Shown here piece by piece: positions 7,947-44,703 of a stretch of DNA of 64,000 nucleotides. A program made the position numbers and the translations under genes. This stretch comes from Clostridia bacterium (GTDB taxonomy: Bacteria > Bacillota > Clostridia > Oscillospirales > CAG-272). Where the stretch lies: assembly GCA_017463485.1 (NCBI GenBank), contig JAFTPD010000002.1, positions 65,229 to 129,228 of the forward strand, in the 5' to 3' direction. The notes beneath the pieces were generated by a model. That model was not told where the DNA came from. It was given only the letters and a program-made list of their open reading frames with translations, and did not search any database. The stretch's first letter is position 1. Every line of letters begins with the position of its first letter.

Positions 7947-7998
7947 TTTGAGCGAAACGGTCAGAATATGCATAAACTCTTGACAAATCCGCTCAAAA
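7947..7998. promoter_or_regulatory. inverted repeat flanking the promoter of the Ldh_2/malic enzyme operon (candidate DeoR operator)
   Basis: TTTTGAGCG (7947-7955) and CGCTCAAAA (7990-7998) are inverted copies. TTGACA at 7980-7985 with TATAAC 17 nt downstream. Confidence 0.4.
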
Positions 7999-8049
7999 CG
8001 ATTATAACATAAGTAGTAGAAAAAATCAATACTTTAAGGAGAATTTTTT

Positions 8050-14444: not shown

Positions 14445-14697
14445 GAGAAAACGCAAGACGGGTAGCGACTGCCTGAGCGATGTCAAAGCCTACGAGGAGC
14501 TGCTCCGCGTATACGGCGCGTGGCTTGGATATCTGTTGTCGCGTCTTGGTGAGGGCGAGCTTCGCGTTGATGTGTCCGAGATATCGAAAGGACTTGACGC
14601 CGCTTGCGTGAGCGCGTGGCGAGAGGGTGACGAATACGTCATCCGTGTGGATAAAAAGGATGTGGCTGACAATGGCGGAGAAAAAAAGGGGACTTGA
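14437..14697 (+). CDS. hypothetical phage protein (86 aa)
   Basis: ORF overlapping the neighbours by 8 nt and 26 nt. No motif recognised. Confidence 0.45.
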   Translation: MAERKRKTGSDCLSDVKAYEELLRVYGAWLGYLLSRLGEGELRVDVSEISKGLDAACVSAWREGDEYVIRVDKKDVADNGGEKKGT

Positions 14698-15058
14698 ATT
14701 TATTCCGTCGGATGTCGCCGCAGATGACGCAAGACGCAGTCGCCGCGTTGAGGATTCCATCTATAAGCGCGCACGCGGATATAAGGTAGCCGTCAAAAAG
14801 ACTTACAAGGTCAAGCGCGTAGAATACGATCCCGATACGGGTAAGAAAACGTCGGAGCGGGAGGAGCTGGCGACGGGCATTGACGAGGTACATATTCCCG
14901 CCGACGTCCGCGCAGGGGAGTATTGGCTCAAAAACCGTTCCCCCGAGCGTTGGAGTGAGCATCCCGCAGTACCCGACGCGGATGACGGTGATGATGGCGT
15001 GGGGATAATTCTGCTCCCCGACGTAGAGGCGTCTGACGGAGGAAAAAATGAAGCCTGA
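14672..15058 (+). CDS. terminase small subunit
   Basis: Position before TerL and the C-terminal motif PADVRAGEYWLKNRSPERW, typical of small terminases. Start at internal ATG (MAEKKRG). Confidence 0.7.
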   Translation: MAEKKRGLEFIPSDVAADDARRSRRVEDSIYKRARGYKVAVKKTYKVKRVEYDPDTGKKTSEREELATGIDEVHIPADVRAGEYWLKNRSPERWSEHPAVPDADDGDDGVGIILLPDVEASDGGKNEA

Positions 15059-16496: not shown

Positions 16497-16529
16497 CAGA
16501 AAAAAGAATTCGGAGGCAGGGTGGGAATT

Positions 16530-18146: not shown

Positions 18147-18448
18147 TAGACGTAAGCTATGCGGTAAACGCCGAGAGCGGAAAATGCCAAATTGAAGCGT
18201 GCGGTCACGCAGGCTGTGCCGAGCGCGGAGGAGACGTTATCTGCGCGGGAGTGTCCGCGCTCCTGTACGGATTTCTGTACTACCTCTCCGAAAAGCACGG
18301 CTCAAGTCTTGTGTGGCACGAGAGCGACGACAGCCTTTTTATGTGCTTCCCGTCGGAGAGCGCGGAGGCACTTGAGGTGATAACGGCATCTCTCAGACTT
18401 ATGTCGGACACCTATCCCGAATACGTTAGCTTGCAAGAAGGAAGGTAA
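18143..18448 (+). CDS. Prp-like (DUF464) cysteine protease, phage-encoded
   Basis: GHAGCAERGGDVICAGVSAL matches the Prp His/Cys catalytic dyad motif. Compare host Prp at 55679 (GHTGYGEEGGDVLCAAISAM). ATGA overlap with the portal gene. Confidence 0.8.
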   Translation: MIDVSYAVNAESGKCQIEACGHAGCAERGGDVICAGVSALLYGFLYYLSEKHGSSLVWHESDDSLFMCFPSESAEALEVITASLRLMSDTYPEYVSLQEGR

Positions 18449-18451
18449 AAT

Positions 18452-18928
18452 ATGGAACAAATCACAGAAACCGAAATCATAACGGAAAACGAACAGACAG
18501 AGCCGACCGCAGAGTCGACACTTGAGGTAACGGAGACGGAGGAGGTCATCAGTCAGCCGACAGAGCCGCAGACGCAGGGTATTGATATGGAGGAATTTAC
18601 CCGTTCACTCCTTGATGCTTACCCCGACGCAGACGTCGCTGACGAAAGACTGCTCGCCTACGCCGAAGGTCGCGAGCGACTCAGTGCCGTTGACCTTTAC
18701 CGAGCTTTGAATTTTGACAGCCTTGTGGCAAAGGCGGCAAACGCCGCCGCGCTGGAAGCCGAATCAAAGCTTATCGCACATATCCGTCTTTGCGGAATTC
18801 GCCCCGCAGAGAACGGAACAGACAGACAAAAGGGAGGAAAGAAAACCCCTCCCGTGGCAAGGCTCAGCCGCGCCGAGCGAGCAAAAATTGCCGCAAGAGC
18901 AGGTCGCGGAGAGCGCATTGAATTTTAA
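18452..18928 (+). CDS. putative scaffolding protein
   Basis: Highly acidic N-terminus, Ala-rich helical middle, basic C-terminus. Sits between the protease and the capsid gene. Confidence 0.6.
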   Translation: MEQITETEIITENEQTEPTAESTLEVTETEEVISQPTEPQTQGIDMEEFTRSLLDAYPDADVADERLLAYAEGRERLSAVDLYRALNFDSLVAKAANAAALEAESKLIAHIRLCGIRPAENGTDRQKGGKKTPPVARLSRAERAKIAARAGRGERIEF

Positions 18929-18946
18929 AAAAGAAAGGACAAAAAA

Positions 18947-20221
18947 ATGAACAACACAAACCTTTATATCGGCAAGGACTACATTCAGCATTTTGCTTCG
19001 GGTGAGCGTGTAATGGGAACTGCGGGCGTGTCCAATAACAACGCCGCTACCGTAACCCCTTACGAGGGCGAAGGACTTTCTGCCGAGATGAGAACCTATT
19101 ACAGCGACTATCTTATCGATAACGCAGAGCCTTATCTGGTGCACGATCTGTTCGCACAGAAGCACCGCATCCCCACGGGCGGCGGTAAGACTATCTCCTT
19201 CCGCAAGTACGATCCGCTGCCCAAGCGCACCTCTCCCATTGTAGAGGGCGTTACCCCTGACGGTCAGGATTTCCACGTTAGCGTAGTGGAGGCAACCGTT
19301 TCCCAGTACGGCGGATATATCGAGCTTACCGACCTACTTCTCATGACGGCGGTTGATAACAACCTCTGCATGGCAACCAAGCTGCTCGGTGCGCAGGCAG
19401 GACGTACCCTTGACACCATCTCGCGCGAGGTGCTTTCAGGCGGTACAAACGTTCAGTACGGCGAGAACGCCGTATCTGCGCGTCATCTGCTGGTGGGAGG
19501 CAAGGAGAGCGGCAACCATTACCTTACCGTTGACTGTATCCGCCGCGCGGTAAGATTCCTCAAGAGTCAGAATGCTGAGAAGATCGACGGCTCTTACGTG
19601 GCAATCATCCACCCCGACTGCACCTACGACCTTATGAACGATCCCAACTGGAAAACGCCCAATCAGTACGCCGATAGCAAGCGTATCTTCGAGGGCGAAA
19701 TCGGCAAGATCGAGGGCGTGCGCTTTATCGAGTCCAGCGAAGCCAAGATCTTCCACGCAGAGGATCTTTATGAAGGTCAGCGCACAGTCCCTGTTACCAA
19801 CGGCACAGCAGACGGAGGTCTTTATCTGCAGGGCAACACATTGCCTGACAGATGGATTATCGTTAACGGCAAACGCGTATATTACAGCGCGTCAAAGTGC
19901 TACACCGATTCCACCAAACAGAATACCGTCGATATGAGTGGAGCCAAAGTAAACGATATCGTCTATCCTGGTGAAGCAGGTGCAGAGGGCCGCGATGTAT
20001 ATTCCACCCTTATCATCGCGGATAACGCATACGGTACAACCGAAATTTCGGGGGGCGGACTTGAGCATATCGTAAAGCAACTCGGTAGCGCAGGAACGTC
20101 CGACCCGCTCAATCAGAGAGCAACCGTCGGTTGGAAGGCGTCCAAGGTCACTACTCGTCTTGTAGAGGCGTTTATGGTGAGAATCGAGACCACCTCCACC
20201 TTCGAATCGGGCAACAACTGA
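18947..20221 (+). CDS. major capsid protein (N4-gp56-like family)
   Basis: 424 aa. ISFRKYDPLP..EGVTPDG..VSQYGGYIELTDLL..LLGAQAGRTLD matches my memory of the N4-gp56 capsid family. N-terminal IQHF-AS motif. Confidence 0.8.
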   Translation: MNNTNLYIGKDYIQHFASGERVMGTAGVSNNNAATVTPYEGEGLSAEMRTYYSDYLIDNAEPYLVHDLFAQKHRIPTGGGKTISFRKYDPLPKRTSPIVEGVTPDGQDFHVSVVEATVSQYGGYIELTDLLLMTAVDNNLCMATKLLGAQAGRTLDTISREVLSGGTNVQYGENAVSARHLLVGGKESGNHYLTVDCIRRAVRFLKSQNAEKIDGSYVAIIHPDCTYDLMNDPNWKTPNQYADSKRIFEGEIGKIEGVRFIESSEAKIFHAEDLYEGQRTVPVTNGTADGGLYLQGNTLPDRWIIVNGKRVYYSASKCYTDSTKQNTVDMSGAKVNDIVYPGEAGAEGRDVYSTLIIADNAYGTTEISGGGLEHIVKQLGSAGTSDPLNQRATVGWKASKVTTRLVEAFMVRIETTSTFESGNN

Positions 20222-20277
20222 TAATTTATAAACACCCCGCCCTCGGGCGGGGGAGAGATAAAGAAAGGAAAAAGAAT

Positions 20278-20562
20278 ATGAGTACGAATACCGAAAATAA
20301 AAACAAGACCGTTTCCACTCCCGAGGACTACCTTGAGGAGCTGGTTTCCATAAAGCTTTTCCGCGACGGCGGACGTTATCGCGACAACGTGTACGTTGCT
20401 GTCAACGGACAGAACTGCATCATCAAGCGCGGTGAATGGGTAAAGGTAAAGCGCAAGTTTGCCATGGTGCTTGACGCCTCCGAAATTCAGGATATGAAGA
20501 CCGCGCAGATGATCGAAGCCGAGGAGAAAAAGTTCCAAACTGCCGAATCCAAGCTCGCCTGA
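20278..20562 (+). CDS. hypothetical phage head-associated protein (94 aa)
   Basis: ATG after AAAGGAAAAAG, inside listed ORF 20131..20562. No family recognised. Confidence 0.55.
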   Translation: MSTNTENKNKTVSTPEDYLEELVSIKLFRDGGRYRDNVYVAVNGQNCIIKRGEWVKVKRKFAMVLDASEIQDMKTAQMIEAEEKKFQTAESKLA

Positions 20563-20580
20563 CGGAGCGGGGGTGAGTTT

Positions 20581-20919
20581 ATGACTATCGGTAAATGTAT
20601 CGGCATAGCCGAAACCATAGCGCCCAACAAGATCGACAGAGAGCTGAAGCTCCGTTGGCTCAGCGAGCTTGAGGGCAAGATAGCCGTAGAGCTTTTCGAC
20701 GCTATGCCGGAGGAGCTGAACGAGTACAGCGCCGAGTGTGAGGACGGGGTGCAGCTTTACGTCCCGTTTCCGTTTGACCAGATATACTGGATGTACCTCG
20801 TGGCAATGCTTGACCTTGCCAATGGGGACAACGCAAGATACGGAAATTCCGCAGGCGCGTTCAATTCCGCCTTTGAGAGCTACGCCAAATGGGTATTGCG
20901 CAACGGAGTGACGAGGTAA
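20581..20919 (+). CDS. hypothetical phage protein (112 aa), possible head-tail connector
   Basis: Position after the capsid gene. No motif recognised. Confidence 0.5.
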   Translation: MTIGKCIGIAETIAPNKIDRELKLRWLSELEGKIAVELFDAMPEELNEYSAECEDGVQLYVPFPFDQIYWMYLVAMLDLANGDNARYGNSAGAFNSAFESYAKWVLRNGVTR

Positions 20920-20923
20920 GCCC

Positions 20924-21067
20924 ATGGACGTTCAGAAAATAACGCTCACCTCGGGCAGATTTATTCCTTCCCGCTCGGAGGACCTTGAAAAAAGGATAGA
21001 CGAGCTTGAAAAATATCTCATGCTGCTTACCGAAGAGCTTGAAAAGCGTTCAGATAACACACAGTAA
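20924..21067 (+). CDS. small coiled-coil ORF (47 aa)
   Basis: My own translation: MDVQKITLTSGRFIPSRSEDLEKRIDELEKYLMLLTEELEKRSDNTQ. It fills the gap between plus-strand phage genes and is below the ORF-track size cut-off. Confidence 0.35.
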   Translation: MDVQKITLTSGRFIPSRSEDLEKRIDELEKYLMLLTEELEKRSDNTQ

Positions 21068-21091
21068 GCAAAGAGGAAAGGAGAATGAGTA

Positions 21092-22666
21092 ATGTCAGGT
21101 AAAACAGCGGTATCCCTACCTTTGGGAATAGCCAAAGACTCAAACGTCAAAAAAAGGACGCAGACAAAATTCGGCGGACTTTGCCGCGAGAGAATGGCGA
21201 GCGGTGAGGACATCAGCTATATGCTCAATACGACGTGCTGTGATCATCCGAGAATATCCGCGCGAGAGAGGAGAAGGCTGTCCTCTGCGAGTGCCGTGGC
21301 GGGAAGCACGTCGTATACCGTCGCAGTGTCGGATAAGGTATACGTAGTCGAGGGCGACAAGCTCTACATTTCTGAAAACGGTGCACGTACCGAATGCTGT
21401 ACTCTGTCATCCGAATCGGATAAAAAGATAATCTGCTACGGTAACGACCTTGTGATCCTGCCCGATTATATCCATTATCAGTCGCCCTTTGGATATACTA
21501 AAAGTATGCGTATTTCAACAGACGTTATCAAAGCAACAATAAGCGGCAACTCGCTTGTTGCAGAGTCCGTCGATTTTGAGGATATTGGCTTCAGAATGGG
21601 CGACGGTGTAACAGTTACCTCAGTGGCAAGCACGCTGTCCAGTCATGTGTTCACGGTAAACTCTACCGTTTATTACGTAGACGGAAACACCTTGCTTATA
21701 GACGGAGTTTTTCCGAGCGACGGGGAATATGCGATTCGCGTAAGACGTGACATACCCTCACTTACCCACGCCGTATGCTGGGGCGAGCGAATGTACGGCA
21801 CGTCGGGAAGCAACGTCAACATTTCGGAAGAAGGAAATATCTATAACTGGAAAGGGAAAAGGGGACTTGACAGCGACCCCGTGACTATGCCGTCAGTCTC
21901 CGTCGGCAGCTTTACCGCTTGCGCCGAATGGAACGGTTATATTGTCTTTTTTAAGGAAGGCTCGATATGCAAGCTGCTTGGCAATAAGGCGTCAAGCTAC
22001 GTGTTGTCAGAGGTAACGGCGCCGGGTATTCCCGAGGGTGGACATAAAACGCTTGTTTCTCTCGGCGGCGCGCTCTACTACTGCGGCACAATGGGAGTTT
22101 ATAAGTACGACGGTACGCATCCCAAGCGGATAGATCAGGGCGCGCTTCCCGACGGCTTGAAGGCGACGGCAGCCGCCACTGACGGAGAAAGATATTATCT
22201 TGCGGCAAACGGTAAAGTGTACGTTTACGACCCCGTGCGACAACTATGGAGCGCAGAATCGGGCGCGGCTATCGTCAGTATGGCAGGCAGAGCGGGCGAG
22301 GTATATATGTTGACGTCGGGCGGATTGCTGTTTGCGTCGGGCGATACGGCAGAGGGCGGACTTGAGGACGCGACCGACGCATGGCTGTCCTTTGGATACG
22401 ACGACGGAGGCGCGGCAGAAAAGAAATCCCTCCTATCATTGAGTTTAACCGTCCGATTGGGAGAGGGAGCTGACCTCGAGGTGCTCGCAGAATTCGACGA
22501 GGACGGCGAGCAGGTGCTTGTCGGAAACAGCAGAGGACGTGGCGCGTGGGAAAATCTCACCTATATGTGTCCGCCCAATATCTGCGGTGGATTCCGAATA
22601 CATCTTCATGCCCGCGGTAGCTTTACGCTCGCGTCGCTGACGCGCAATTACCGCATCATAAGCTGA
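21092..22666 (+). CDS. 524-aa beta-rich phage structural protein of unknown role
   Basis: GAGGAAAGGAGA RBS. Recurrent G-x-hydrophobic-Y motifs (KVYVVEGDKLYI, GALYYCGTMGVYKYDG, GERYYLAANGKVYVYD, GEVYMLTSGGLLFA) suggest a propeller or beta-sandwich. Confidence 0.6.
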   Translation: MSGKTAVSLPLGIAKDSNVKKRTQTKFGGLCRERMASGEDISYMLNTTCCDHPRISARERRRLSSASAVAGSTSYTVAVSDKVYVVEGDKLYISENGARTECCTLSSESDKKIICYGNDLVILPDYIHYQSPFGYTKSMRISTDVIKATISGNSLVAESVDFEDIGFRMGDGVTVTSVASTLSSHVFTVNSTVYYVDGNTLLIDGVFPSDGEYAIRVRRDIPSLTHAVCWGERMYGTSGSNVNISEEGNIYNWKGKRGLDSDPVTMPSVSVGSFTACAEWNGYIVFFKEGSICKLLGNKASSYVLSEVTAPGIPEGGHKTLVSLGGALYYCGTMGVYKYDGTHPKRIDQGALPDGLKATAAATDGERYYLAANGKVYVYDPVRQLWSAESGAAIVSMAGRAGEVYMLTSGGLLFASGDTAEGGLEDATDAWLSFGYDDGGAAEKKSLLSLSLTVRLGEGADLEVLAEFDEDGEQVLVGNSRGRGAWENLTYMCPPNICGGFRIHLHARGSFTLASLTRNYRIIS

Positions 22667-30542: not shown

Positions 30543-30587
30543 CGCTCTGCAAACACAGCTTGATTTTTGCTGAAAGGAGGAATGTCT

Positions 30588-31595
30588 ATGGCACAGATCG
30601 TGGGACTTGATCTGGGTACTGCTTATACGCGCATCTGGCTTGACGGAAAAGGAATAATACTGCGTTGCCCATCGGCGGTTGCTATGGACAGCCAGACTCA
30701 CGATATAGTGGCGGTTGGCGAGAAGGCGCGGATGATGCTGGGCAAAACGCCCGAGGATATCCTCGCATACAGCCCCGTAAAGGACGGCACCATCGCCGAT
30801 TTCCAAGCGGCGGCGGGAATGGTGAACGAGTTTTTCTACAACAAGCACCTCTCCTCGCTGTTCAACCGTCCCACTGTTATTGTCACTGAGCCTTACAGCA
30901 TAAACGAGGTTGAAAGCCTTGCCGTTGAAAACGCAGTGCTTGCGGCGGGCGCAAGATCGGTGGCACAGATACCTGCCGTGTACGCGGCGGCAGTAGGTGC
31001 AGGACTTAACGTAAGCAGTCCGAGAGGATGTATGATAGTCAATATCGGAGCGGGCAGGGCAGAGGCGGCTATAATCAGCTCCTGCGGCATCATCCGCGCG
31101 CGCTCAATGAAGCTCGCGGGCGAAAAATTTGATATGGCGATAAGCAATTACCTCAAAAAGAATATGGGAATACTTGTCGGTGACCGCACGGCGCATAAGC
31201 TGAAAATAAACGTCGGAACGGCGTTGCCCTCCATTGACAGAGGCTATATGACCGTCCACGGGCAGAACGACCGCACCAAGCTTCCGCTCAGCCTTGACGT
31301 ACATAGCTCACACGTCAGCGAGGCACTCCTGCCGTGTATCGAAGCAATATCCAGAATGATAATGAGTACCTTTGACGGTGCGCCGCCCGAAATTATTGGC
31401 GATATATATAATTACGGCTTTATGCTGAGCGGCGGAAGCGCACTGCTGCCCGGACTGCCCGAGGTGCTGTCAAAGAAAACGGGGCTTCGCGTGACGGTGG
31501 CAAAGAATCCGCGCGATACCGTAGTTGAAGGACTTGGTACGCTTATTGCTAAGCCGTACCTTTACGGTGACTCGCCGCAGTTTAAGATCAAATAA
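30588..31595 (+). CDS. MreB-family actin-like protein (divergent)
   Basis: GLDLGTAYTR, VKDGTIADF, NIGAGRAEAAI, LSGGSALLPGL. Motif variants differ from canonical MreB. ATG is 7 nt after AAAGGAGG. Confidence 0.8.
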   Translation: MAQIVGLDLGTAYTRIWLDGKGIILRCPSAVAMDSQTHDIVAVGEKARMMLGKTPEDILAYSPVKDGTIADFQAAAGMVNEFFYNKHLSSLFNRPTVIVTEPYSINEVESLAVENAVLAAGARSVAQIPAVYAAAVGAGLNVSSPRGCMIVNIGAGRAEAAIISSCGIIRARSMKLAGEKFDMAISNYLKKNMGILVGDRTAHKLKINVGTALPSIDRGYMTVHGQNDRTKLPLSLDVHSSHVSEALLPCIEAISRMIMSTFDGAPPEIIGDIYNYGFMLSGGSALLPGLPEVLSKKTGLRVTVAKNPRDTVVEGLGTLIAKPYLYGDSPQFKIK

Positions 31596-31609
31596 CCGAG
31601 GAGAAAGTT

Positions 31610-32725
31610 ATGAGTGAAGAAAATATAAACATTACACAAAATAACGAGCAAAAAAGAGTGACACCGCTCGCAATAGATTTTGTCTTGCTCGATAAGGAAA
31701 ATACCATGCAGGCAAGAAGGGATTTTTCCGCCGTTGGTATAGCGCTTGCACTGCTTGCACTCGTGCGGCTTGCGGCACAGACGGTAATGATGGGCGTTAT
31801 ATACCTTTTCTTTCCCGCCGTTGTCGACGCTTGGTGGATGAATTGGCTTTTGTCCATAGTTCCGCTTTACGTTTTCGCGCTTCCAGTGTTTATGCTTGCG
31901 CTCCATAAGGTGAGGACCGCGCCGCACGCGGACACCTACCTTGTTAAAGGCAGACTCGGCGAGGAGGATACGCTCCTATCCAAGCCGCGCTTCGGCGTGA
32001 AGGAGCTGCTCCTTTTTGCGGTGGCTTCAATGGGCGTTATGTATATCGGCAGCTATATCGGCGAGACCGTTATGACTATTCTGTCGGCTATTATGGGCTA
32101 CGATTATTCCTCGGCGTTGGGAACTATGGTGGATGCAACCCCGCAGTGGTTTACCCTTATTATGACTTGCATTATCGCGCCCTTTGGCGAGGAGCTGATA
32201 TTCCGTAAGCTGCTTATCGACAAAACGCGCAGATACGGCGACGTCGTTGCAATAGTCGTGTCCGCACTGTCCTTCGGTCTGTTCCACATGAACTTTTACC
32301 AGTTCTTCTACGCTGTGCTTATCGGATTTATAGTGGCTTATGCTTACACGCTGACGGGTAAGCTCAGATGGAGCATTGCCATTCACTCATTCGTAAACTT
32401 TATCGGTTCTATCGTTATCCCCGCTATGGCGTCGAAAGTGGATTTCGAGGTGATAAACTCGGGGGATGTGAATGCTATTTTGGAGTCGATAATGGCAGCT
32501 CCCGTGGGATATCTGCTTTATGCATTTGCTCTCCTTCTTACCTATGCGGCGTCAATCGCGGCAGTGGTGATAATTATACTGAATTTCAAAAGGCTTGCCC
32601 TGTCAAAGGGTCGGGTACAGCTCGTATCCGCTAAGCTGTCAAGCGTGACTGTAAACAACGGCGGAATGATATTCGCTATCATTGTGATGGCGTTGATGTT
32701 TGCGCTGAATCTCTTGCCCGCGTAA
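31610..32725 (+). CDS. CPBP family intramembrane glutamic endopeptidase
   Basis: FGEELIFRK, FGLFHMN and AIHSFVNF motifs, multiple TM segments. Confidence 0.8.
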   Translation: MSEENINITQNNEQKRVTPLAIDFVLLDKENTMQARRDFSAVGIALALLALVRLAAQTVMMGVIYLFFPAVVDAWWMNWLLSIVPLYVFALPVFMLALHKVRTAPHADTYLVKGRLGEEDTLLSKPRFGVKELLLFAVASMGVMYIGSYIGETVMTILSAIMGYDYSSALGTMVDATPQWFTLIMTCIIAPFGEELIFRKLLIDKTRRYGDVVAIVVSALSFGLFHMNFYQFFYAVLIGFIVAYAYTLTGKLRWSIAIHSFVNFIGSIVIPAMASKVDFEVINSGDVNAILESIMAAPVGYLLYAFALLLTYAASIAAVVIIILNFKRLALSKGRVQLVSAKLSSVTVNNGGMIFAIIVMALMFALNLLPA

Positions 32726-32760
32726 GAGATATTGAATTTTTGCGAAAGGAGTGCCACGGC

Positions 32761-34917
32761 GTGTATATCCATAACAAAAAAGCTGCGCGTATCGCGGCGC
32801 TCGGCGCTTTTTTCGCGATATGCTGTATAGTTTACATAATCCGCCTCGGCACTCTGGAGCTGAGCGGTGAAAATATCGGCGGGCATAAAAGCGACGGTAC
32901 GACCCAACGATCCGTTATCGTTCAGGCTCAAAGGGGACAGATATACGACCGAGAGGGCAGAGTGCTGGTGTCCAACAGCTATACCTACGATATCACTCTT
33001 GATTACAGCGTTTTCCCCAAGGAGGAGTCCGAGCGCAACGGTGTTATTATAAAGGTTTTGGAGGCGCTTACAGCCTTTCGCGGCTATGCGGGATTTTCGG
33101 AGGAAAGATATCCTCTTGTCGGAGAGTACCCGAATCTCGAATATTCCGAGAGCGCATACGATACCGAGGGGAATACGTATTCCTCGCTCGTCTACTTTAT
33201 AGAGGAGAGCGGACTTCGCGCGGATGCTATCTCAAAGCTCCGCAAAAACGGTTACAGCCGTGACGGAGCGGCAAAGGAGTTTGACAGCGATCCGCTGAAA
33301 TACGTCAGTGCCGCCGACGTGGTGGAGTATATGACGGAGGAATACGGTCTTTTGCTGTCCGACGGCGAGAGCGGCGAGCGGTACTTTTCGGATTACGAGG
33401 TAGAGCTTTTGCTCATGATCCGATACAGTATGGTAGTATCCGGCTTTTCCCGTGCAAACGATTATACTTTTATTAAAAACGTCCCGCTGGATACCATAAC
33501 GTCCGTCCTTGAATGGGGACTTGACGGCGTCTGGTATTCCGTTTCGGCGACGCGCGTTTACGAATACCCGGGATACGCTTCCCACATTCTCGGTCAGACA
33601 GGACCGATATACGCGGAGGATTGGGAATATTACAAGTCCAAGGGCTACAATATGAACGCCACGGTTGGAATTTCCGGCTGTGAGCTTGCGTTTGAGGAAT
33701 ATCTGCGCGGCTCGGACGGCGTGAAAGTGGTCGTAGAGGATAAAAACGGCAACGTGGTGGACGAGTATATGAAGACCGAGGCCATAGCAGGTCGCGACGT
33801 GTATCTCACCATAGATATCAATCTGCAAATAGCCGCAGAGGACGGACTGAAGGATAACGTTGCGTACGTCAACGGTCTTTCCACGGGTACGGAAAGCCGC
33901 GCGGGTGCGTTGACGGCGATAGATCCGTCAAACGGAGAGGTGCTTGTGCTTGCATCCTATCCAAGCTTTGACCTTACCACGCTTGGCGAGGACTACAATA
34001 CGCTTGCCTCCGACGAGGCACTGCCTCTGCTCAACCGCGCGCTTCAGGGAACGTATGCGCCCGGATCTACCTTTAAGCCCGGTGTGGCACTTGCCGCGCT
34101 GTGCGAGGGAGTAGTCGGCGCATCAACACGTGTCGACTGTGAGGGCGTGTATAGATATTACGATAGCTATCAACCAAAATGCTGGGTGTATAACAGCACC
34201 TCCAGCCCCATAAAAATGCACGGACCTATCAACGCCGTCGGCGCGCTTGAGGTGTCCTGTAACTGCTATTTTTATGAGGTCGGCAGAGTTATGGGTATTG
34301 ACGTCCTAAACCGCTATTCCAACGGCTACGGACTTGGACTCAGTACGGGAATTGAGCTGTCCGAGGCTGTGGGAAGTCTTGCAGGTCCCGCTTACCGCGC
34401 GGACTATCACCTCATAGATTGGCAACCCACCGATACGATTGCCGCCGCCATAGGTCAGTCGGATAACGCATTTACGCCGCTTCAGCTAAGCTCGTATATC
34501 TCTACCGTTGTCAATTACGGAACGAGATACAAAACGCACCTTTTGCTCAAGGTAGTGGATTTTGCAACGGGTGAAGTGGTCTATGCCCCCGAGGCTGAAA
34601 TAATGAGCGCTATGGAATTGCCCGAGGAGCACGTTTCTACAGTTATTCGCGGAATGGAAAGAGTGGTGTCGGAGGGCGATACCGTAGGTTATTTTATGCG
34701 AAACGTTCCCGTCACCGTGGCGGGTAAAACGGGTACTGCACAGGTTGGCGGCGATCAGTCGGATAACGGACTTTTCGTTTGCGTTGCACCCTCAAGATCG
34801 CCCGAAATAGTTATCAGCTCGGTGGTCGAGCGGTGCGGCGGCGGATCTTATGCGGCGCTTGCCGCGGCGCGTGTGCTTGAGGAATATTATAATCCGAGTG
34901 AGGAGGTCGTGGAGTAA
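32761..34917 (+). CDS. mrdA: penicillin-binding protein 2 (class B transpeptidase)
   Basis: N-terminal TM anchor. STFK, SCN and KTGTAQ motifs. Start set to GTG 9 nt after GAAAGGAG; this start is uncertain. Confidence 0.85.
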   Translation: MYIHNKKAARIAALGAFFAICCIVYIIRLGTLELSGENIGGHKSDGTTQRSVIVQAQRGQIYDREGRVLVSNSYTYDITLDYSVFPKEESERNGVIIKVLEALTAFRGYAGFSEERYPLVGEYPNLEYSESAYDTEGNTYSSLVYFIEESGLRADAISKLRKNGYSRDGAAKEFDSDPLKYVSAADVVEYMTEEYGLLLSDGESGERYFSDYEVELLLMIRYSMVVSGFSRANDYTFIKNVPLDTITSVLEWGLDGVWYSVSATRVYEYPGYASHILGQTGPIYAEDWEYYKSKGYNMNATVGISGCELAFEEYLRGSDGVKVVVEDKNGNVVDEYMKTEAIAGRDVYLTIDINLQIAAEDGLKDNVAYVNGLSTGTESRAGALTAIDPSNGEVLVLASYPSFDLTTLGEDYNTLASDEALPLLNRALQGTYAPGSTFKPGVALAALCEGVVGASTRVDCEGVYRYYDSYQPKCWVYNSTSSPIKMHGPINAVGALEVSCNCYFYEVGRVMGIDVLNRYSNGYGLGLSTGIELSEAVGSLAGPAYRADYHLIDWQPTDTIAAAIGQSDNAFTPLQLSSYISTVVNYGTRYKTHLLLKVVDFATGEVVYAPEAEIMSAMELPEEHVSTVIRGMERVVSEGDTVGYFMRNVPVTVAGKTGTAQVGGDQSDNGLFVCVAPSRSPEIVISSVVERCGGGSYAALAAARVLEEYYNPSEEVVE

Positions 34918-35773: not shown

Positions 35774-36523
35774 ATGTATAAGAGCAAGGGACTGCGAATA
35801 GTCGGATACGTCCTCAAGACAATCTGCCTTGTGTTGATATTCGGCACTATCGGAATACTTCTGTGGCGCATATTCTCGTCGGGCGACCCTGCAAGCATGA
35901 ATCGCGTGCAGGTCAATGACGAGCTTCGCGCGGCTTACGACGAGCACGGCGAGGATCTGACTATGTATTGGCTGGAGCTTGATGAAACCACCAGCGTAGT
36001 CAATAAAAACTACGGCTATTTCAGCGTTACGCGCGCACTGTTTATAGAGGAAGCAGAGCAGGTGCAGGTCACGTTCAGATACAACAACAGCACCATAAAG
36101 CACCTCAAGGAGGACTACGGACTCAGCGAAATGCCATCTCGCGACGAGGAGCTTTATGACGTCAGCCTGGTGGTAGCCTACGACCTGACCCCCGACGATA
36201 CCTCGGATAATCTGAAAAGCGAGGAGGGAAGCGTTGAGCTTGTCCGATACTATCCTACCTCGTCAGAAAGCGATAAAAAGAACGTATACAATTATCGCAA
36301 GCTGGTCTTTGACGGCGTAAATATGAACGCATCCCCCAATCGGGTGCTTGCGGTCTATGTGGATATCTACTACAATAAGGACATCAACTACGACAAGGAT
36401 TCCTACGGTACGCTGTGCGTTTACGATTACATTACAGAGGAAAAATACGGCAGAAAGGATTTTGAGTTTTCTGCCGAGGACATAAAGGCTCTCAAGGCGT
36501 ATACGCCTAAAATCAAGGAGTAA
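35774..36523 (+). CDS. membrane-anchored hypothetical protein (249 aa)
   Basis: Single N-terminal TM (IVGYVLKTICLVLIFGTIGILLW), then a soluble domain. No family recognised. Confidence 0.6.
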   Translation: MYKSKGLRIVGYVLKTICLVLIFGTIGILLWRIFSSGDPASMNRVQVNDELRAAYDEHGEDLTMYWLELDETTSVVNKNYGYFSVTRALFIEEAEQVQVTFRYNNSTIKHLKEDYGLSEMPSRDEELYDVSLVVAYDLTPDDTSDNLKSEEGSVELVRYYPTSSESDKKNVYNYRKLVFDGVNMNASPNRVLAVYVDIYYNKDINYDKDSYGTLCVYDYITEEKYGRKDFEFSAEDIKALKAYTPKIKE

Positions 36524-36549
36524 ACGTCCTTTGAAAAGAGGTGAGAGGT

Positions 36550-39500
36550 ATGACTATCATCAAAAAGCGATCGAGCGGTAATATAAATACCGCCGCAGAC
36601 GACAGAATAGGGTTCCTGCAGGAGCGCGTGCTGTCACGCAAGGGAATAATAGGCTGCTCAAACGGATACACCGTCGCCCGATATGAAAACGGAAAGATCT
36701 TCTACGCGGGCGAGAACAGATGGGGACAGGAGGAATGTACCGGATGGACGGACGTTATCAGCATCTCCGTCGCCCATGAGTACGTGCTTGGACTTTTGTC
36801 CGACGGAACTGTCCGCGCGGCAGGCTACGATTCTCACGGACAGCTTCAGATAAGCCGCTTTTCCTGCGCGCGCAGTGTGTCTGCGGGACGCTACCATTCT
36901 GCGGCTATCATACAGAACGGACGCGTGGTATGTGCAGGAGATAACAGCCATGGTCAGTGTGATACCTCCGAGTGGGAGGACGTGTGTGACGTTGTTTGCG
37001 GCAATGATTTCACTCTGGGACTTACGCAAAACGGAAAGGTTCTGTACGCGGGTGGCAGTCGCGCCATGCGAGCAAGATTTTCCCGTTGGGAGAAGATCGC
37101 GGGACTTTTTGCCGACGTTTCGGGCGAGCGGATATACGGTATCCGCGCTGACGGAACGGTGGTGTCAAATGCCTACCTTCCCGCTGAGGTAAAGAAATGG
37201 AAGAACCTTGTGTATCTTTCAGTCGCCGATGGAGTTTATGCCGGAATCACCCTTGGTGGAACTGTCAACGTCCATGGGAATGGCGACCTTGAAAAAATAC
37301 TGTCAAATAAGGCAGAGGAGTTCGTCACCGTGTCTATGTCGGGCGAGCACTCCGCCGCTGTCAACAGCACAGGACAGATATTGACCGTGGGGGACAATCA
37401 CTTCGGTCAGTGCGATACACGTCACCAAAAGCCGCTGTTTGACGACTTTACGGAGCTGTGCGCCAATATGCAGGCGGCTCGCCGCCGTCGCCGTCAGCGC
37501 GAGCTTGAATATAAAAAGCGTGAGTGCGAGGCGGAAAGATTTTCCCGCCGTATGGCTTGCAGTGAGAGAATAAGCGTGGGTATCTCCGCCATGGGCAGAG
37601 TTTATACCACGGGTAGCTTCAAGGACGTGAAATCATGGTCGGACGTTACCACCATAAGCTGTGGCAACGCACACATCCTCGCCCTTCATTCGGACGGAAC
37701 GGTCAGTGCGTCCGGAAACAATGTAGAGGGCTGTACTGCCGTGTCCGAATGGCGCGGTATAGTTGAGATACTTGCGGGTAAATATCACTCGCTTGCTCTT
37801 ACCTCGGACGGCAGAGTGCTTTTTACGGGACAGAATTACAATAATCAGGGCGACGTGAGCTCTTGGAGCGGTATCAAGCATATTTTCGGAACGGATACCT
37901 ATACTCTCGGATTGCGTGTCGATGGCAGTGTGATATCTGCTGGACGCGGACTCCCATGCTCTCGCGACGTGCTTGAGGGCGACGAATGGAAAAATATCAT
38001 TCATATAGTCCCCACTGACAGTCATATCGCCGCATTGCGCGCCGACGGTACGGTAGTCACTGCGGGTAACGCTTCGTATATGAGCCGTTTTACGGGATGC
38101 ACCAACGATTGGCAGGGGGTCAAATCCATAGCCGCAGGGAACGGCTTTACCGCAGGACTTTGCTACGGCGGCAGAGTGCTTGCTGTGGGTGAGAATGCCT
38201 TCGGTCAGTGTGATACTCAAAATTGGAGTAACGTTGTGCGCATATCAGCAGGACGCACGTCGCTTGTCGGACTTTGCGCCGACGGCAAGGTCTATTCTGC
38301 GGGCGCTCAACGCATAAGCGCAGAGCAGGCAAGTCGAATGTTCGATTCTCCCAATCTTATACGAGGGGAGAGGCAGGGAGTCAATTATCTTCGCTGTAAT
38401 ACCGATATGCTGTCGGATATCGTGGCGATAACGTGCGCCCCCGAGCATACCCTTGCCATTGATAAGGGAGGACAGATGTTTGCGCTCGGACTTGACGGCG
38501 ACGGTCAGTGCGCGGTGTCCGCGTTCACAATGTTCAGTAACATATCCCAGTACGATAAGGGCGTGGGCTATTATAAGAGCCGCGCTCACGAGCAAGAAAT
38601 ACTTGTGAGTGATGAAAATACCGCCGAGGCTGACAGCGCTGACACAGCACACGGCGAGATAAAGAGAACGGCACACGAAAATCTTATTTACGATTCAAAT
38701 AGATATACGAGCATGATCGCGGGCGGCGACGACCACGTTACCGTGGCAGACGACGAGGGAAACGTGCGCTCTTACTCATTCTCGGGCGGCGTGATCATTA
38801 CAGAGCCGTTGACGGGTAAAAGACCGATAAAGGTAGTTGCAGGCAAGGCGCACAGCGCAGTGCTTTACGAAAACGGCGACGTGCGCTTGCGTGAATCCTT
38901 TGATTCGCAGCTCAATCCTGCAATGGTGCTTCCTCCGTGGTATAATTCCGTCGGACTTGTAAAGGCTGTTGATATCTGCGCGGGTGACAGACATACCGCA
39001 GTATTGCTGGAGGACGGCACTGTCAGAGCTATGGGAAGCAATAAATTCGGTCAGTGTGACGTGTCTGCTCTGACGGGCATAAAAGCTCTTGGCGCAGGCT
39101 CGGCGCATACGGCGGGACTTACGGAGAGCGGCGAGGTGATCGCAGTCGGCTCTAAAAATCGCGAGATCGCGATAAAGGCGCGCTCTGTGGCTCACGCTCC
39201 CGTTTGGAATCCTTGCCAGACACAGAGATGGAGTGACGTTGCAAGCATTGAATGTACTGCCGATATCACCCTCGGTATCAAGAACGACGGCGACGTGCTG
39301 GCGGTTGGAGGCAATAACTTCGGTCAGTGCCGCACTGGATTTTGGCATAACGTTATCGACGTTAAAACCTCGGGCAGGCATACCGCCGCTTTGCGTGCCG
39401 ACGGTCGCGTGGAGGCTATCGGATGCAACGAGCGCGGAGAATGTAATACCTCCGAATGGAAAAACATCATAATGCTCGCCCTGCGCAGCGGTGTAACCTA

Positions 39501-40656
39501 CGGTCTGCGTGCCGATGGACAGCTTTCTGTGGCGGGATATTGCGATTGCAATACTAATATCGGGGTCGCTTGGAGAGCTGTGTTCTGCTTTGGCGTAAAT
39601 CTTGTGCTGCTCAGCGCCGAGGGATATCTGTATTATCATAGGCTCGGCAGCAAAAAAGAATTGTCGCGTATAGAAAATATGCGAGTATTTACCCCTTTGA
39701 CCGAGAACGGTATCATGAACCGTGTCGGTAAGGTCTCGGGAATGACAAACGTCTTGAATGTCGCCAAAGAGGCAAAGCAGAGGATCGCCGTGGGACTTAC
39801 CCACGCCCTCAAGCTACGTCCCGACGGTCACGTGCGCGCCTACGGCTCAAACGTGGCAGGGCAGTGCGACGCACGTGGCTGGGAGGATATAGCTTCTCTG
39901 TCCTCCGGATTGTATTTCAGTGTGGGACTTACAGCGAGCGGTAAGATATGCTCGTCGGGTAAGGATACCGTAATGTCCACGGACGGCAATAATACCTCGC
40001 GCTCCATAGCGGACGAGCTGAATTTCCTGCTTTACAGCGTGGATATCAGCCTACCGCAGGATAGCGGCGGGGACGACGAGCTGGATGCAACCTATACGCT
40101 CAACGACAGTCAGCTTCGCTACGTCAGCCTGTCTGCAGGTGCTAATTTCGCCGCGGCGGTAAGAAGTGACGGGCGCGTGTTCGGAGTGGGCGACAACAGC
40201 TACGGTCAGTGTGATCTTAACCGAATAAGAAACGCCGCCGAGGTGGCTTGCGGTACTCACCATACGGCAGTGCTACTGCACGACGGTAGAGTGGTATGTT
40301 CGGGCGATAACAGCTTTGGTCAGTGCGATACGCAGTGGTGGCGCAATATCGTTATGCTATCCTGCGGAGAAAATCATACCGTTGGACTCAAATCGGACGG
40401 TTCCGTCGTTGCAGTGGGTGACAACGGACTTTCACAGTGTGACGTGTCGGATATTGCCATCGGCGTGTCCGTGACGGCTATGCCCGAGGCAACTCTTGTA
40501 ATTCTGCCCGGCGGTCGCGTGGTGATACGCGGCGGCAGAGGAGTAATGAATAAATTCGTGGCGTCCCTGCGCGAAACAGTTGCACTTGACGCCTGCGAAT
40601 ACCGTATCGGTGCGCTGTCCTCGGACGGCAAGCTGCATCTCTCGGACGAAAAATAA
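36550..40656 (+). CDS. giant RCC1-repeat (multi beta-propeller) protein, 1368 aa
   Basis: At least 15 copies of the RCC1 hairpin signature (GDNSHGQCD, GDNHFGQCD, GENAFGQCD, GSNKFGQCD, GGNNFGQCR, GDNSYGQCD, GDNSFGQCD...). No N-terminal hydrophobic signal. ATG follows AGAGGTGAGAGG. Confidence 0.85.
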   Translation: MTIIKKRSSGNINTAADDRIGFLQERVLSRKGIIGCSNGYTVARYENGKIFYAGENRWGQEECTGWTDVISISVAHEYVLGLLSDGTVRAAGYDSHGQLQISRFSCARSVSAGRYHSAAIIQNGRVVCAGDNSHGQCDTSEWEDVCDVVCGNDFTLGLTQNGKVLYAGGSRAMRARFSRWEKIAGLFADVSGERIYGIRADGTVVSNAYLPAEVKKWKNLVYLSVADGVYAGITLGGTVNVHGNGDLEKILSNKAEEFVTVSMSGEHSAAVNSTGQILTVGDNHFGQCDTRHQKPLFDDFTELCANMQAARRRRRQRELEYKKRECEAERFSRRMACSERISVGISAMGRVYTTGSFKDVKSWSDVTTISCGNAHILALHSDGTVSASGNNVEGCTAVSEWRGIVEILAGKYHSLALTSDGRVLFTGQNYNNQGDVSSWSGIKHIFGTDTYTLGLRVDGSVISAGRGLPCSRDVLEGDEWKNIIHIVPTDSHIAALRADGTVVTAGNASYMSRFTGCTNDWQGVKSIAAGNGFTAGLCYGGRVLAVGENAFGQCDTQNWSNVVRISAGRTSLVGLCADGKVYSAGAQRISAEQASRMFDSPNLIRGERQGVNYLRCNTDMLSDIVAITCAPEHTLAIDKGGQMFALGLDGDGQCAVSAFTMFSNISQYDKGVGYYKSRAHEQEILVSDENTAEADSADTAHGEIKRTAHENLIYDSNRYTSMIAGGDDHVTVADDEGNVRSYSFSGGVIITEPLTGKRPIKVVAGKAHSAVLYENGDVRLRESFDSQLNPAMVLPPWYNSVGLVKAVDICAGDRHTAVLLEDGTVRAMGSNKFGQCDVSALTGIKALGAGSAHTAGLTESGEVIAVGSKNREIAIKARSVAHAPVWNPCQTQRWSDVASIECTADITLGIKNDGDVLAVGGNNFGQCRTGFWHNVIDVKTSGRHTAALRADGRVEAIGCNERGECNTSEWKNIIMLALRSGVTYGLRADGQLSVAGYCDCNTNIGVAWRAVFCFGVNLVLLSAEGYLYYHRLGSKKELSRIENMRVFTPLTENGIMNRVGKVSGMTNVLNVAKEAKQRIAVGLTHALKLRPDGHVRAYGSNVAGQCDARGWEDIASLSSGLYFSVGLTASGKICSSGKDTVMSTDGNNTSRSIADELNFLLYSVDISLPQDSGGDDELDATYTLNDSQLRYVSLSAGANFAAAVRSDGRVFGVGDNSYGQCDLNRIRNAAEVACGTHHTAVLLHDGRVVCSGDNSFGQCDTQWWRNIVMLSCGENHTVGLKSDGSVVAVGDNGLSQCDVSDIAIGVSVTAMPEATLVILPGGRVVIRGGRGVMNKFVASLRETVALDACEYRIGALSSDGKLHLSDEK

Positions 40657-41413: not shown

Positions 41414-41517
41414 TCGTGCCTTCCAAGCCAAAAACTCCCACAAAACTATTGACAAAAAAGCAATTTTGTGTTAAAATTTTAAAAGCAAACAACCTACCCG
41501 ACGGAGGATAGACCAAG

Positions 41518-42663
41518 ATGAAAAATTTCCACGTCAACACCGAAATATTTTTCGGCGAAAGAGCGCTTGAAAGACTTGCACAGCTTGAATATGACCGTGT
41601 TATCGTCATTTCCGACCCGTTTGTCGTCACAAGTGGGCTTATAGCTCTTGCTACATCGCGACTTGACAGCGCAAAAATACAGTATTCAGTGTATACCGAT
41701 GTCGTGCCGGATCCGCCTATCGATAAGGTGATCGGCGGCGTTACCGAGGTGCTCAAGACCCGCCCGCCATGTATCGTGGCTATCGGTGGCGGCTCGGCTA
41801 TCGACATGGCAAAGGCAGTGCGCAAGTTTGCAACTCAGATAGAGCCTGCTTACCGCCCGTCGCTTATCGCTATACCCACCACCAGCGGAACGGGAAGCGA
41901 GGTCACCCGCTTCGCGGTGATCACCGATCCCGCAGCGGAGAGAAAATATCCTCTTGCCAGCGAGGACCTTATCCCCGACGAGGCAATACTTGACGAGGAG
42001 CTTGTAAAGAGCGTGCCCGCGTCTATTACCGCTGATACGGGAATGGACGTGCTTACCCACGCTATCGAGGCTTACGTGAGCATCAATAATAACGAGTTTT
42101 CCGCGGCACTTGCCGAGAAGGCGGTGGAAATCTCGGGACAGTTCCTTATTCGCTCTTACAGCGACTGCAACGATACCCACGCGCGTCGAAAAATGCATAT
42201 CGCCGCTTGCCTTGCTGGACTTGCATTCAATTCCGCATCTCTTGGACTCAATCACGGTATGGCGCACCAGCTCGGCGCGAATTTCCATATTCCTCACGGC
42301 AGAGCGAACTCCATACTCCTGCCGCATATCATTGAGTTTAATAGCGGTATCAGCCTTACCAGCCGCTCGCAGGACAACTATCCGCCTTGCGTGTTGAGAT
42401 ACTGTAATATGGCGAGAACGCTGGGTGTAAATAATATCAATAAGGTTACTACCGTCCGCTCGCTTATAAGCTATATTCACTTTATGGCGGCGGAAATGCA
42501 TATCCCAGCGCGCGTGTCCGAGGCTGTCAATATTACGTGGGAGGAATACGAATCCCATATTGAAAGAATGGCAGAGGCCGCACTTGAGGACGGCTGTACC
42601 GCAACCAATCCCCGTAAACCTACCAAGGAAGAGGTTATGGAGATATATAGGAAGATCTGGTAA
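41518..42663 (+). CDS. iron-containing (group III) alcohol dehydrogenase
   Basis: GGGSAIDMAK, PTTSGTGSEVT, and His-rich metal site (HAIEAY, HGMAHQLG, HG). Confidence 0.85.
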   Translation: MKNFHVNTEIFFGERALERLAQLEYDRVIVISDPFVVTSGLIALATSRLDSAKIQYSVYTDVVPDPPIDKVIGGVTEVLKTRPPCIVAIGGGSAIDMAKAVRKFATQIEPAYRPSLIAIPTTSGTGSEVTRFAVITDPAAERKYPLASEDLIPDEAILDEELVKSVPASITADTGMDVLTHAIEAYVSINNNEFSAALAEKAVEISGQFLIRSYSDCNDTHARRKMHIAACLAGLAFNSASLGLNHGMAHQLGANFHIPHGRANSILLPHIIEFNSGISLTSRSQDNYPPCVLRYCNMARTLGVNNINKVTTVRSLISYIHFMAAEMHIPARVSEAVNITWEEYESHIERMAEAALEDGCTATNPRKPTKEEVMEIYRKIW

Positions 42664-42738: not shown

Positions 42739-42772
42739 CCACCACAATTATTCATTATTCATTTTTCATTCA

Positions 42773-42799
42773 AAAAGCCTCGCTGAGCGAGGCTTTTTG
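42773..42799 (-). terminator. terminator of the HAD-family gene
   Basis: AAAAAGCCTCGC-tga-GCGAGGCTTTTT, directly after the stop at 42800. Confidence 0.65.
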
Positions 42800-43908: not shown

Positions 43909-44703
43909 TCAATACAATTTGTATTTCAACCTCAAATTATCCGCGATCATGGCGATAAATTCAGAGTTCGTAGGCTTGCCGCGATTGTTCTGAATGGTGT
44001 ACCCGAAATAAGACGTCAACGTGTCCACGTCGCCTCTGTCCCACGCTACCTCGATGGCGTGGCGGATGGCGCGCTCAACGCGGCTGGTCGTAGTCGAATA
44101 TTTCTTTGCAACGGAAGGGTAGAGCACCTTGGTGACGGAATTGATGATATCCGAATCCTTGACCGTGAGGAGAATTGCCGTGCGCAGATACTGATACCCC
44201 TTAATGTGCGCAGGAACGCCGATCTGGTGAATGATCTGCGTTACCTGCGTTTCAATGTCGGGAGTTCTGTCGCTGTCAGCGTCCGCAGGTGAAAAGTTGC
44301 CGTTTTTGCCGTCGCGCGAGCGGAGCAGCATATCAATATGCTGAACGAGGCTTTCGGACTTTAACGGCTTGATAAGACAAAGCTGTGCGCCCGCCGTCGC
44401 AGCTTGAATAAACATATTTTGATTGGCAACGGGGGACGTCATAATAAATACGGGCGCGCGATCGCCCGAGGCAGCGTAATTGATGCTTTGTGCCGCGCGG
44501 ATAACCCCGATACCGTCAAGCTTTGACAGCCATATATCTACAATGGCAATGTCGGGGTGGGTACGCTCTATTTTTGTCAATGCCTCGTCGCCGTTGGTTG
44601 CCTCGTCTATCATACGATAGCCCGATCTCATAAGTGATTCCTTCAGCAGGGCTCGCCCGCTTGCATTTTCGTCCGCAATAAGTATGCGAGTGGTGTAATC
44701 CAT
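43909..44703 (-). CDS. spo0A: sporulation master regulator Spo0A
   Basis: Receiver domain ([17 protein letters not shown]) and the diagnostic Spo0A C-terminal domain ([16 protein letters not shown]...[15 protein letters not shown]). Confidence 0.93.

Follow-up and report, generated by a model that had tools for sequence, protein, structure and literature searches.

Propeller proteins built of RCC1- or BLIP-II-type repeats are common in bacteria, where hardly any has been characterised and an extracellular location is assumed for most. One such protein, of 1368 amino acids (aa), is encoded on the 64,000-nucleotide stretch of Clostridia bacterium contig JAFTPD010000002.1 that was analysed here (the window). 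Its closest described counterpart is BLIP-II of Streptomyces exfoliatus (PDB 1jtd, 3qhy, 3qi0), a non-enzymatic propeller that acts by binding another protein. In the PDB, BLIP-II ranked first by sequence (1jtd_B, E 7e-12) and, using Foldseek, also by fold (3qhy, 3qi0 and 1jtd, E 7e-20 to 3e-18, target-normalised TM-scores of 0.71-0.77). The two proteins share repeats of ~38 aa, three-stranded blades and the G-x-N-x-x-G-Q hairpin, however BLIP-II consists of one seven-bladed propeller of ~270 aa compared to four propellers in the 1368-aa protein, the sequence identity is only 19-25%, and conserved helical connectors are found in the larger protein only. BLIP-II is reported to be a secreted inhibitor, while a signal peptide of its type is absent from the 1368-aa protein and from the 84 other listed members of its family. 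The targets that BLIP-II binds and inhibits are class A beta-lactamases, through Trp/Glu hot spots on its top face; no beta-lactamase gene was seen among the annotated neighbouring genes (window ~28-43 kb).

The blades of eukaryotic RCC1 are 51-68 aa long and four-stranded, and its beta-wedge is needed for Ran exchange. The eukaryotic RCC1-like domains (RCC1, UVR8, the HERC2 RLDs and RPGR) belong to the same superfamily, carry the same motif and formed the second tier of Foldseek matches (E 1e-11 to 1e-16). They are intracellular protein-binding propellers, and several of them occur within HERC1/2. The architecture of eukaryotic RCC1, with seven four-stranded blades and a beta-wedge, is not that of the 1368-aa protein, where the units have ~38 aa and three strands; the target-normalised TM-scores were only 0.4-0.55, and the propeller gene has no small GTPase context. 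Among bacteria, the RCC1 effectors of Legionella are single-propeller proteins that are translocated by type IV secretion and act on the Ran cycle of the host. LegG1, PpgA and PieG (PMC7157520) resemble the present protein in being bacterial and lacking a Sec signal, and they act by binding proteins, but their effector biology has no counterpart in a metagenome-assembled genome (MAG) of gut Clostridia. The RCC1-type giant proteins of gut Oscillospiraceae consist wholly of RCC1 repeats, without a transmembrane anchor (West-Roberts et al., 10.1101/2023.11.21.568195). Bacterial family and habitat are shared with these giants, as is the repeat-only composition, which was compared by description only; they are far larger than 1368 aa and predicted to be extracellular, and the 1368-aa protein has two non-repeat linkers.

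The fold, the repeat type and the RCC1-only proteins of Oscillospiraceae are thus already known. What is new here is a leaderless family with a propeller 1-helix-propeller 2 core, its modularity at the level of whole propellers, and its operon links to ADP-ribosylglycohydrolase (ARH) and GH127 genes. A literature search for a characterised homologue or for an ARH-RCC1 association found nothing, in agreement with an earlier reading of the sequence (the original prediction), according to which large bacterial RCC1 proteins are mostly uncharacterised. The 1368-aa protein is read as a non-catalytic, leaderless array: four BLIP-II-type propellers in which no further domain was detected. It may serve, in general terms, as a cytoplasmic, non-catalytic, multivalent binding platform, a reading to which we give slightly less than an even chance.

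The gene is a genuine open reading frame, and its start was located as follows.

36550..40656, + strand: coding sequence of the RCC1/BLIP-II-like multi-propeller protein, 1368 aa counted from the ATG, stop codon included.
36537..36548, + strand: strong Shine-Dalgarno sequence AGAGGTGAGAGG, read from the sequence, ending 1 base 5' of the ATG at 36550.

A GTG in frame at 36541 is an alternative start that would add 3 aa; the ATG is preferred because of the Shine-Dalgarno sequence. A longer N-terminus is impossible because the stop codon of the preceding gene, which encodes a 249-aa protein, lies at 36521-36523, 27 nucleotides 5' of the ATG. This stop codon, together with the N-terminus common to the orthologues, ruled out a hidden upstream signal peptide or alternative start. 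The protein is 100% identical to a hypothetical protein labelled 'MAG Clostridia bacterium IJX74_00615' (P0001). The G+C content of the gene (0.52-0.54) closely matches that of the window (0.44-0.54 in 2-kb windows). Its ratio of nonsynonymous to synonymous substitution (dN/dS) was 0.105 against Oscillospiraceae SIG628 (93% identity) and 0.159 against a 70% relative, compared to 0.015-0.11 for the neighbouring genes; the gene is under purifying selection.

The repeat content was examined using Pfam, in which RCC1_2 (PF13540) matched 13 stretches of the protein with 369 bits against a cut-off of 22 (E 8.4e-114), and the RCC1-like domain PF25390 matched 6 stretches with 317 bits against 150 (E 2.7e-94). 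Both matches are far beyond chance and place the protein in the RCC1 superfamily. A match to PF00415 was marginal (24 bits, with no single stretch passing alone), and no domain other than RCC1 repeats was detected in Pfam, NCBIfam or PADLOC. The original prediction had counted at least 15 canonical hairpins, however its own pattern, G[DNES]N..GQC[DR], matches only 7 times and relaxed patterns 13-14 times. Its statement that almost every hairpin keeps a cysteine is roughly right, as a cysteine follows GQ in 11 of the 14 relaxed matches. The hairpin motif has disappeared from about half of the ~30 blades, and a hidden Markov model (HMM), trained on the unambiguous repeats and then run iteratively against the protein, found 28 matches of ~38 aa, equivalent to ~27 blades.

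The protein was modelled with AlphaFold2 as two halves, each with a family alignment of 41 sequences. The model of residues 1-700 had a mean predicted local distance difference test score (pLDDT) of 88.4 and a predicted TM-score (pTM) of 0.79, and that of residues 661-1368 a pLDDT of 87.1 and a pTM of 0.84. In both models each repeat of ~38 aa forms a three-stranded unit, and Foldseek matched the models to BLIP-II, UVR8 and RCC1 at probability 1.00, consistent with closed propellers. About 30 blades are predicted in four propellers, with units arranged 7+8+8+7; the rings of propellers 2 and 3 would have either 7 or 8 blades each. The repeat HMM and the models of the two halves therefore bear out the roughly four propellers that had been proposed. 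The pTM was high for both halves, which suggests that the two propellers of each half are packed together and not strung like beads. The repeat-containing parts are as follows.

36589..36633, + strand: conserved N-terminal helix, residues 14-28, from the AlphaFold2 secondary structure, the family alignment and hydrophobicity; it is not hydrophobic and not a signal peptide.
36649..37425, + strand: propeller 1, residues 34-292, seven three-stranded blades (repeat HMM; AlphaFold2 strands with pLDDT ~90).
37552..38526, + strand: propeller 2, residues 335-659, eight three-stranded units and an inserted hairpin at 603-615 (HMM, AlphaFold2).
38716..39684, + strand: propeller 3, residues 723-1045, ~8 three-stranded units and a disordered loop at 868-896 (HMM, AlphaFold2).
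39784..40641, + strand: propeller 4, residues 1079-1364, seven blades and an insertion at 1140-1190 (HMM, AlphaFold2).

The N-terminal helix is followed by the motif R-K-G-[LI]-[IV]-G-C, which opens blade 1. Identity between the four propellers is only 26-32% in the longest pairwise alignments, and the array is therefore old. Recent amplification of blades was ruled out by these identities and by the family-wide alignment of orthologous blades.

The original prediction had described two unusual linkers, an arginine-rich helix and an acidic segment. Both were placed correctly, at residues 308-334 (nucleotides 37471-37551) and 687-707 (38608-38670) respectively, with the first overlapping the helix that joins propellers 1 and 2. 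The joining segments in the models are as follows.

37447..37545, + strand: helix joining propellers 1 and 2, 33 residues (300-332), AlphaFold2 helix with pLDDT 83-91.
38530..38664, + strand: disordered linker between propellers 2 and 3, residues 661-705, holding the acidic segment, AlphaFold2 pLDDT 30-40.
39712..39777, + strand: connector of propellers 3 and 4, residues 1055-1076, two short helices in AlphaFold2 (395-400 and 405-416 in model numbering), poorly conserved (36-71% identity).

The helix at 300-332 is the most conserved segment of the protein, with 100% and 89% identity to relatives and a dN/dS of 0-0.09. Its length and its amphipathic pattern, F..F..RR...E[RK].YQ.RLTEA.RY..RL, are conserved across the family, while the marked richness in arginine and lysine is confined to the clade of the window. 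The disordered linker is followed by a short helix at residues 706-718 in the AlphaFold2 model, and the region comprising both (661-722) is 53% identical to its counterpart in locus L008, the second-lowest value of the segments compared. The linkers are therefore present as described, but their oddness was overstated: one is a helix of fixed length found throughout the family, and the acidic part is a disordered loop with little conservation.

The protein belongs to a family of which 41 sequences align over the full length, collinearly, at 34-70% identity and with invariant columns along the whole length. The core of this family, which comprises P0001-P0085 and the member in L101, consists of the N-terminal helix with R-[KR]-G-[LI]-[IV]-x-C-G, propeller 1, the helix F..F..RR...E[RK].YQ.RL.EA.R and propeller 2. 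The 1368-aa protein contains this core, which is kept in two- and three-propeller forms. Long forms have 1306-1394 aa, and forms of ~1185 aa are also present. Short forms of ~940-1000 aa align to residues 24-992, containing propellers 1-3 without propeller 4, and the 705-aa member in L101 contains only propeller 1, the helix and propeller 2. These alignments indicate that whole propellers have been gained and lost at the C-terminus around the core, giving forms with two, three and four propellers. The family was found in ~18 species of the GTDB species set, all of them represented by MAGs from animal or human gut and labelled Oscillospiraceae, Eubacteriales or Clostridia; the nearest relative is that of Oscillospiraceae SIG628 (93% identity). 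In this analysis the family was found only in uncultured gut Clostridia. It was absent from the viral contigs searched, and a phage origin was ruled out, as these contigs held only distant RCC1 proteins of 26-32% identity.

When the genomic context of orthologues at 35-39% identity was compared, the upstream gene on the same strand was found to encode an ARH-family protein of ~600 aa. This protein contains an ADP_ribosyl_GH domain and a C-terminal extension of ~300 aa, and has no hydrophobic N-terminus. The ARH gene lies directly upstream in L001-L007, L010, L011, L013, L017, L018, L021, L022, L024, L098 and L101, covering two-, three- and four-propeller forms of the family. The distance between the two genes was measured in L001, L004, L005 and L017, where it varies from an overlap up to 92 bp. 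The element CTTGACC-N17-TGnTATAAT is highly conserved 5' of the ARH gene in 11 loci.

L001 5878-6157: promoter region before the ARH-RCC1 operon, with equivalents in L004, L005, L006, L011, L017, L018, L021, L022, L024 and L098.

Judged by its sequence, this element is a sigma-A promoter of the canonical type, with an extended -10, and speaks for transcription of the ARH-RCC1 operon in vegetative cells. Downstream of it comes a leader of ~60-70 nucleotides with a hairpin whose sequence varies from locus to locus. The idea of a riboswitch or another known RNA in this leader was rejected, as Rfam gave nothing meaningful (best E 0.65, a microRNA family). In a second subfamily, with the N-terminus MNVMTAFT...RRGIIGCG, the propeller gene follows a GH127-like gene (611-650 aa) in L012, L015, L016 and L023. 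A 26%-identical member, P0090, sits among GH2, GH78, GH39, ROK, SIS and MFS genes. The partners that were checked, ARH in L001 and L004-L006 and GH127-like in L012, L016 and L023, have no hydrophobic N-terminus.

The likely location of the protein was examined using hydrophobicity. The top 19-residue Kyte-Doolittle mean was 1.78, and the protein has neither a hydrophobic N-terminus nor a transmembrane-like segment. A signal-peptide-like N-terminus, lipobox or transmembrane-like segment was found in none of the 85 listed family members. For comparison, 35 more distant RCC1 hits from the same search (P0086-P0120), which have the same repeat type at 24-32% identity, were inspected. These include Ser/Thr kinase-RCC1 proteins, Zn-ribbon/TIR/TPR-RCC1 proteins and RCC1 proteins with a signal peptide; they carry effector or anchoring domains, while the leaderless family has repeats only. 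An obvious signal peptide or lipobox was seen in ~10 of the 35, and ~17 (kinase, Zn-ribbon and TIR fusions) have a transmembrane segment before the repeats. P0100, P0101, P0114 and P0119 (Zn-ribbon/TIR/TPR fusions) and P0094 have no signal peptide or transmembrane-like segment, and two of the 35 are further members of the leaderless family. The absence of a signal peptide noted in the original prediction thus holds for the protein and for all listed members. Since the whole family is leaderless and most distant RCC1 hits are not, a cytoplasmic location is plausible on sequence grounds. As a separate observation, the four fusions P0100, P0101, P0114 and P0119, which combine RCC1 repeats with a zinc ribbon, TIR and/or TPR, form a second apparently cytoplasmic class of arrays, possibly of immune sensors.

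If the protein is a binding platform, it would remain in the cytoplasm, each of its propellers presenting a face for binding in the manner of BLIP-II, and it might serve cytoplasmic hydrolases as an adaptor, a regulator or a sequestering partner. Its sister-clade relatives are encoded by the second gene of a two-gene operon, behind the ~600-aa ARH-family enzyme, and those of the other subfamily follow the GH127-like enzyme. The ARH pairing is absent in the lineage of the window, so any such partner would be encoded elsewhere. Should the pairing be functional, it would give a first handle on the role of intracellular RCC1-like arrays in bacteria and point to a possible system for control of ADP-ribosylation or deglycosylation in abundant, uncultured gut Clostridia; if it is not, the protein is one more conserved hypothetical repeat protein.

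Several points weigh against a cytoplasmic platform. No ARH or GH127 gene lies within the 64-kb window, L020 has lost its ARH gene, and the gene after an ARH homologue of 50% identity is a different one. Much of the ARH pairing may be synteny inherited within a single clade, and, as gut Clostridia have many glycoside hydrolase genes, some of the adjacency (e.g. P0090) could be chance. The partner and the ligand of such a platform are both putative. A missing Sec signal is compatible with non-classical export, and the RCC1-only giants of Oscillospiraceae are predicted to be extracellular (preprint 10.1101/2023.11.21.568195). These last two points lead to the alternative that the protein is exported non-classically, by holin- or lysis-dependent release or through an unrecognised signal, and has an extracellular role in adhesion or binding, as most bacterial RCC1-repeat proteins do. 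Export would also agree with the signal peptides or transmembrane segments before the repeats of most RCC1 hits outside the family, with the fast divergence of the propeller protein, which suits a surface protein, and with the genes for secreted CHAP cell-wall hydrolases beside short forms in four loci. It would agree, too, with the closest structure, BLIP-II, being a secreted inhibitor. It is nevertheless rather unlikely, as none of the 85 listed members has a signal peptide, lipobox or transmembrane segment, the ARH and GH127-like partners examined likewise lack a hydrophobic N-terminus, and the neighbourhoods inspected showed no genes of secretion systems. No wall anchor is recognisable in the 1368-aa protein either, Pfam finding only RCC1 repeats and the C-terminal end being a propeller blade.

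The rates of divergence within the ARH-RCC1 pairs bear on two more specific possibilities. Within the same genome pairs the propeller proteins are 67% identical where the ARH proteins are 96% identical, and 41-61% where the ARH proteins are 86-88%. The propeller array might be a fast-evolving specificity or regulatory subunit of the cytoplasmic ARH-family enzyme, recruiting or sequestering its targets, which we hold to be quite unlikely. If true, it would describe a new two-component module for control by reversible ADP-ribosylation or deglycosylation in gut Clostridia, and the copy in the window would be a version uncoupled from the enzyme gene. The several-fold faster divergence of RCC1 would also be expected if the protein were a cytoplasmic sensor whose effector or antidote is the ARH-family enzyme, the two forming a conflict or anti-phage module; the gain and loss of whole propellers and the leaderless Zn-ribbon/TIR/TPR-RCC1 fusions among the distant hits point the same way. 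ARH domains serve as immunity or antitoxin enzymes in other systems (PMC3482391; PMC13069673). Against such a sensor, the genes flanking the family are housekeeping genes (L28, UvrB, PrmC, Ddl, MreB/PBP2) and not a defence island, no toxin or ADP-ribosyltransferase gene lies nearby, the family is absent from viral contigs and the dN/dS of 0.10-0.16 indicates purifying selection overall. Assignment to a known defence system was likewise rejected, PADLOC-DB v2 giving no match for the RCC1 protein, the 249-aa protein, the ARH partner or the NTP transferase. A role in conflict is therefore very unlikely, and the cytoplasmic binding platform is preferred.

Three minor observations concern these loci. 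In L099 the 50%-identity ARH homologue is followed by an overlapping gene (7758-9020) for a 420-aa acyltransferase-like protein with a zinc ribbon. The 705-aa two-propeller member of L101 (7979-10096) follows an ARH protein 67% identical to that of L001. The secreted CHAP proteins adjoining short RCC1 forms carry Flg_new repeats and are probable cell-wall hydrolases; their genes are as follows.

L016 10956-13052, - strand: CHAP/Flg_new gene.
L017 7425-9392, - strand: CHAP/Flg_new gene.
L019 1242-3269, + strand: CHAP/Flg_new gene.
L030 11133-12638, - strand: CHAP/Flg_new gene.

Within the window the gene order is Maf, MreB, Rce1-like, PBP2, RNHCP, RuvX, 249-aa protein, RCC1, NTP transferase and Fe-ADH, which confirms the neighbours named in the original prediction, including the N-terminal transmembrane segment of the 249-aa protein. 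The propeller gene follows a cell-shape and housekeeping block, and no terminator was found between the 249-aa gene and the propeller gene or until past Fe-ADH, so co-transcription is likely. The relatives at 93% and 69% identity keep this order, except that the 69% relative (L008) has no NTP transferase, and the proposed LicC-like neighbour is thus not conserved even there. The order is not kept beyond close relatives, however the propeller gene is not the sporadic acquisition that this might have signified, because it belongs to a conserved family, is under purifying selection and has a G+C content like that of the window.

The gene order up to the propeller gene, from Maf onwards, together with BLIP-II as the top structural match, would fit a cell wall or elongasome factor, for instance a binder of PBP-like proteins in the manner of BLIP-II. 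The same block, however, occurs in many genomes with unrelated downstream genes, orthologues elsewhere are not near PBP genes, the adjacency being confined to close relatives, and the extracytoplasmic transpeptidase domain is out of reach for a protein without a leader. An elongasome role is accordingly the most improbable of the functions considered. The 249-aa protein was examined as the conserved upstream partner that had been suggested.

35774..36523, + strand: gene of the 249-aa protein, with an N-terminal transmembrane segment, directly after RuvX.

Its family comprises ~983 homologues, which in the contexts examined follow RuvX in the MreB-Rce1like-PBP2-RNHCP-RuvX block. The gene 3' of it is a sigma factor or melibiase gene in other genomes, and the 249-aa gene is absent upstream of all propeller orthologues at 35-39% identity. 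Since it is fixed after RuvX with a varied next gene, it is counted among the housekeeping genes, its place beside the propeller gene being due to chance, and the suggested partnership was abandoned; it also has no similarity to the ARH partner. It matched nothing in Pfam, NCBIfam, PADLOC or PDB, and represents an uncharacterised envelope protein that is conserved widely in these Clostridia. The LicC-like NTP transferase, Fe-ADH and HAD genes were also rejected as partners, the first being missing in L008 and Fe-ADH having its own promoter-like site and terminator.

A link to sporulation had been raised because the lineage was taken for a sporeformer, and the window does encode Spo0A.

43909..44703, - strand: Spo0A gene.

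In this alternative the protein would be assembled in the mother cell as a component of the spore coat or of another structure, and the missing signal peptide in a Spo0A lineage would be explained by this. The Spo0A gene is 3 kb away, SpoIIIAH is a downstream neighbour in L101, and the protein contains 40 cysteines, 2.9% of its residues. A cysteine after GQ is, however, the buried-motif chemistry common to bacterial RCC1 repeats. The gene of the window follows the vegetative mreB/pbp2/ruvX block with no terminator between, the operon promoter of the relatives is of the canonical sigma-A type with an extended -10, and no similarity to spore-coat families was found in Pfam or NCBIfam. The presence of Spo0A thus stands while the link to sporulation is unsupported, and a spore component is highly improbable.

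Other features of the window were recorded in passing. An Rfam scan of 29-45 kb matched no known RNA or riboswitch. The Fe-ADH gene (41518-42663) is preceded by a near-consensus promoter-like site at 41449-41477 (+ strand; 11 of 12 matches, with TG) and followed by a strong terminator with a 13-bp stem at 42771-42799 (+ strand), so it may also be transcribed independently of the upstream genes. At 30567-34917 (+ strand) the genes after MreB encode first an Rce1-like (CPBP) intramembrane protease and then PBP2, in place of MreC/MreD; the order MreB-Rce1like-PBP2 also occurs in L087 and L088, and Rce1-like followed by PBP2 in L008 and L089. A phage head-morphogenesis module, probably part or remnant of a prophage, occupies 14627-22666 (+ strand) and includes genes for a large terminase (15048-16496, Terminase_6N), a P22-like portal protein (16521-18146) and a capsid protein (18947-20221).

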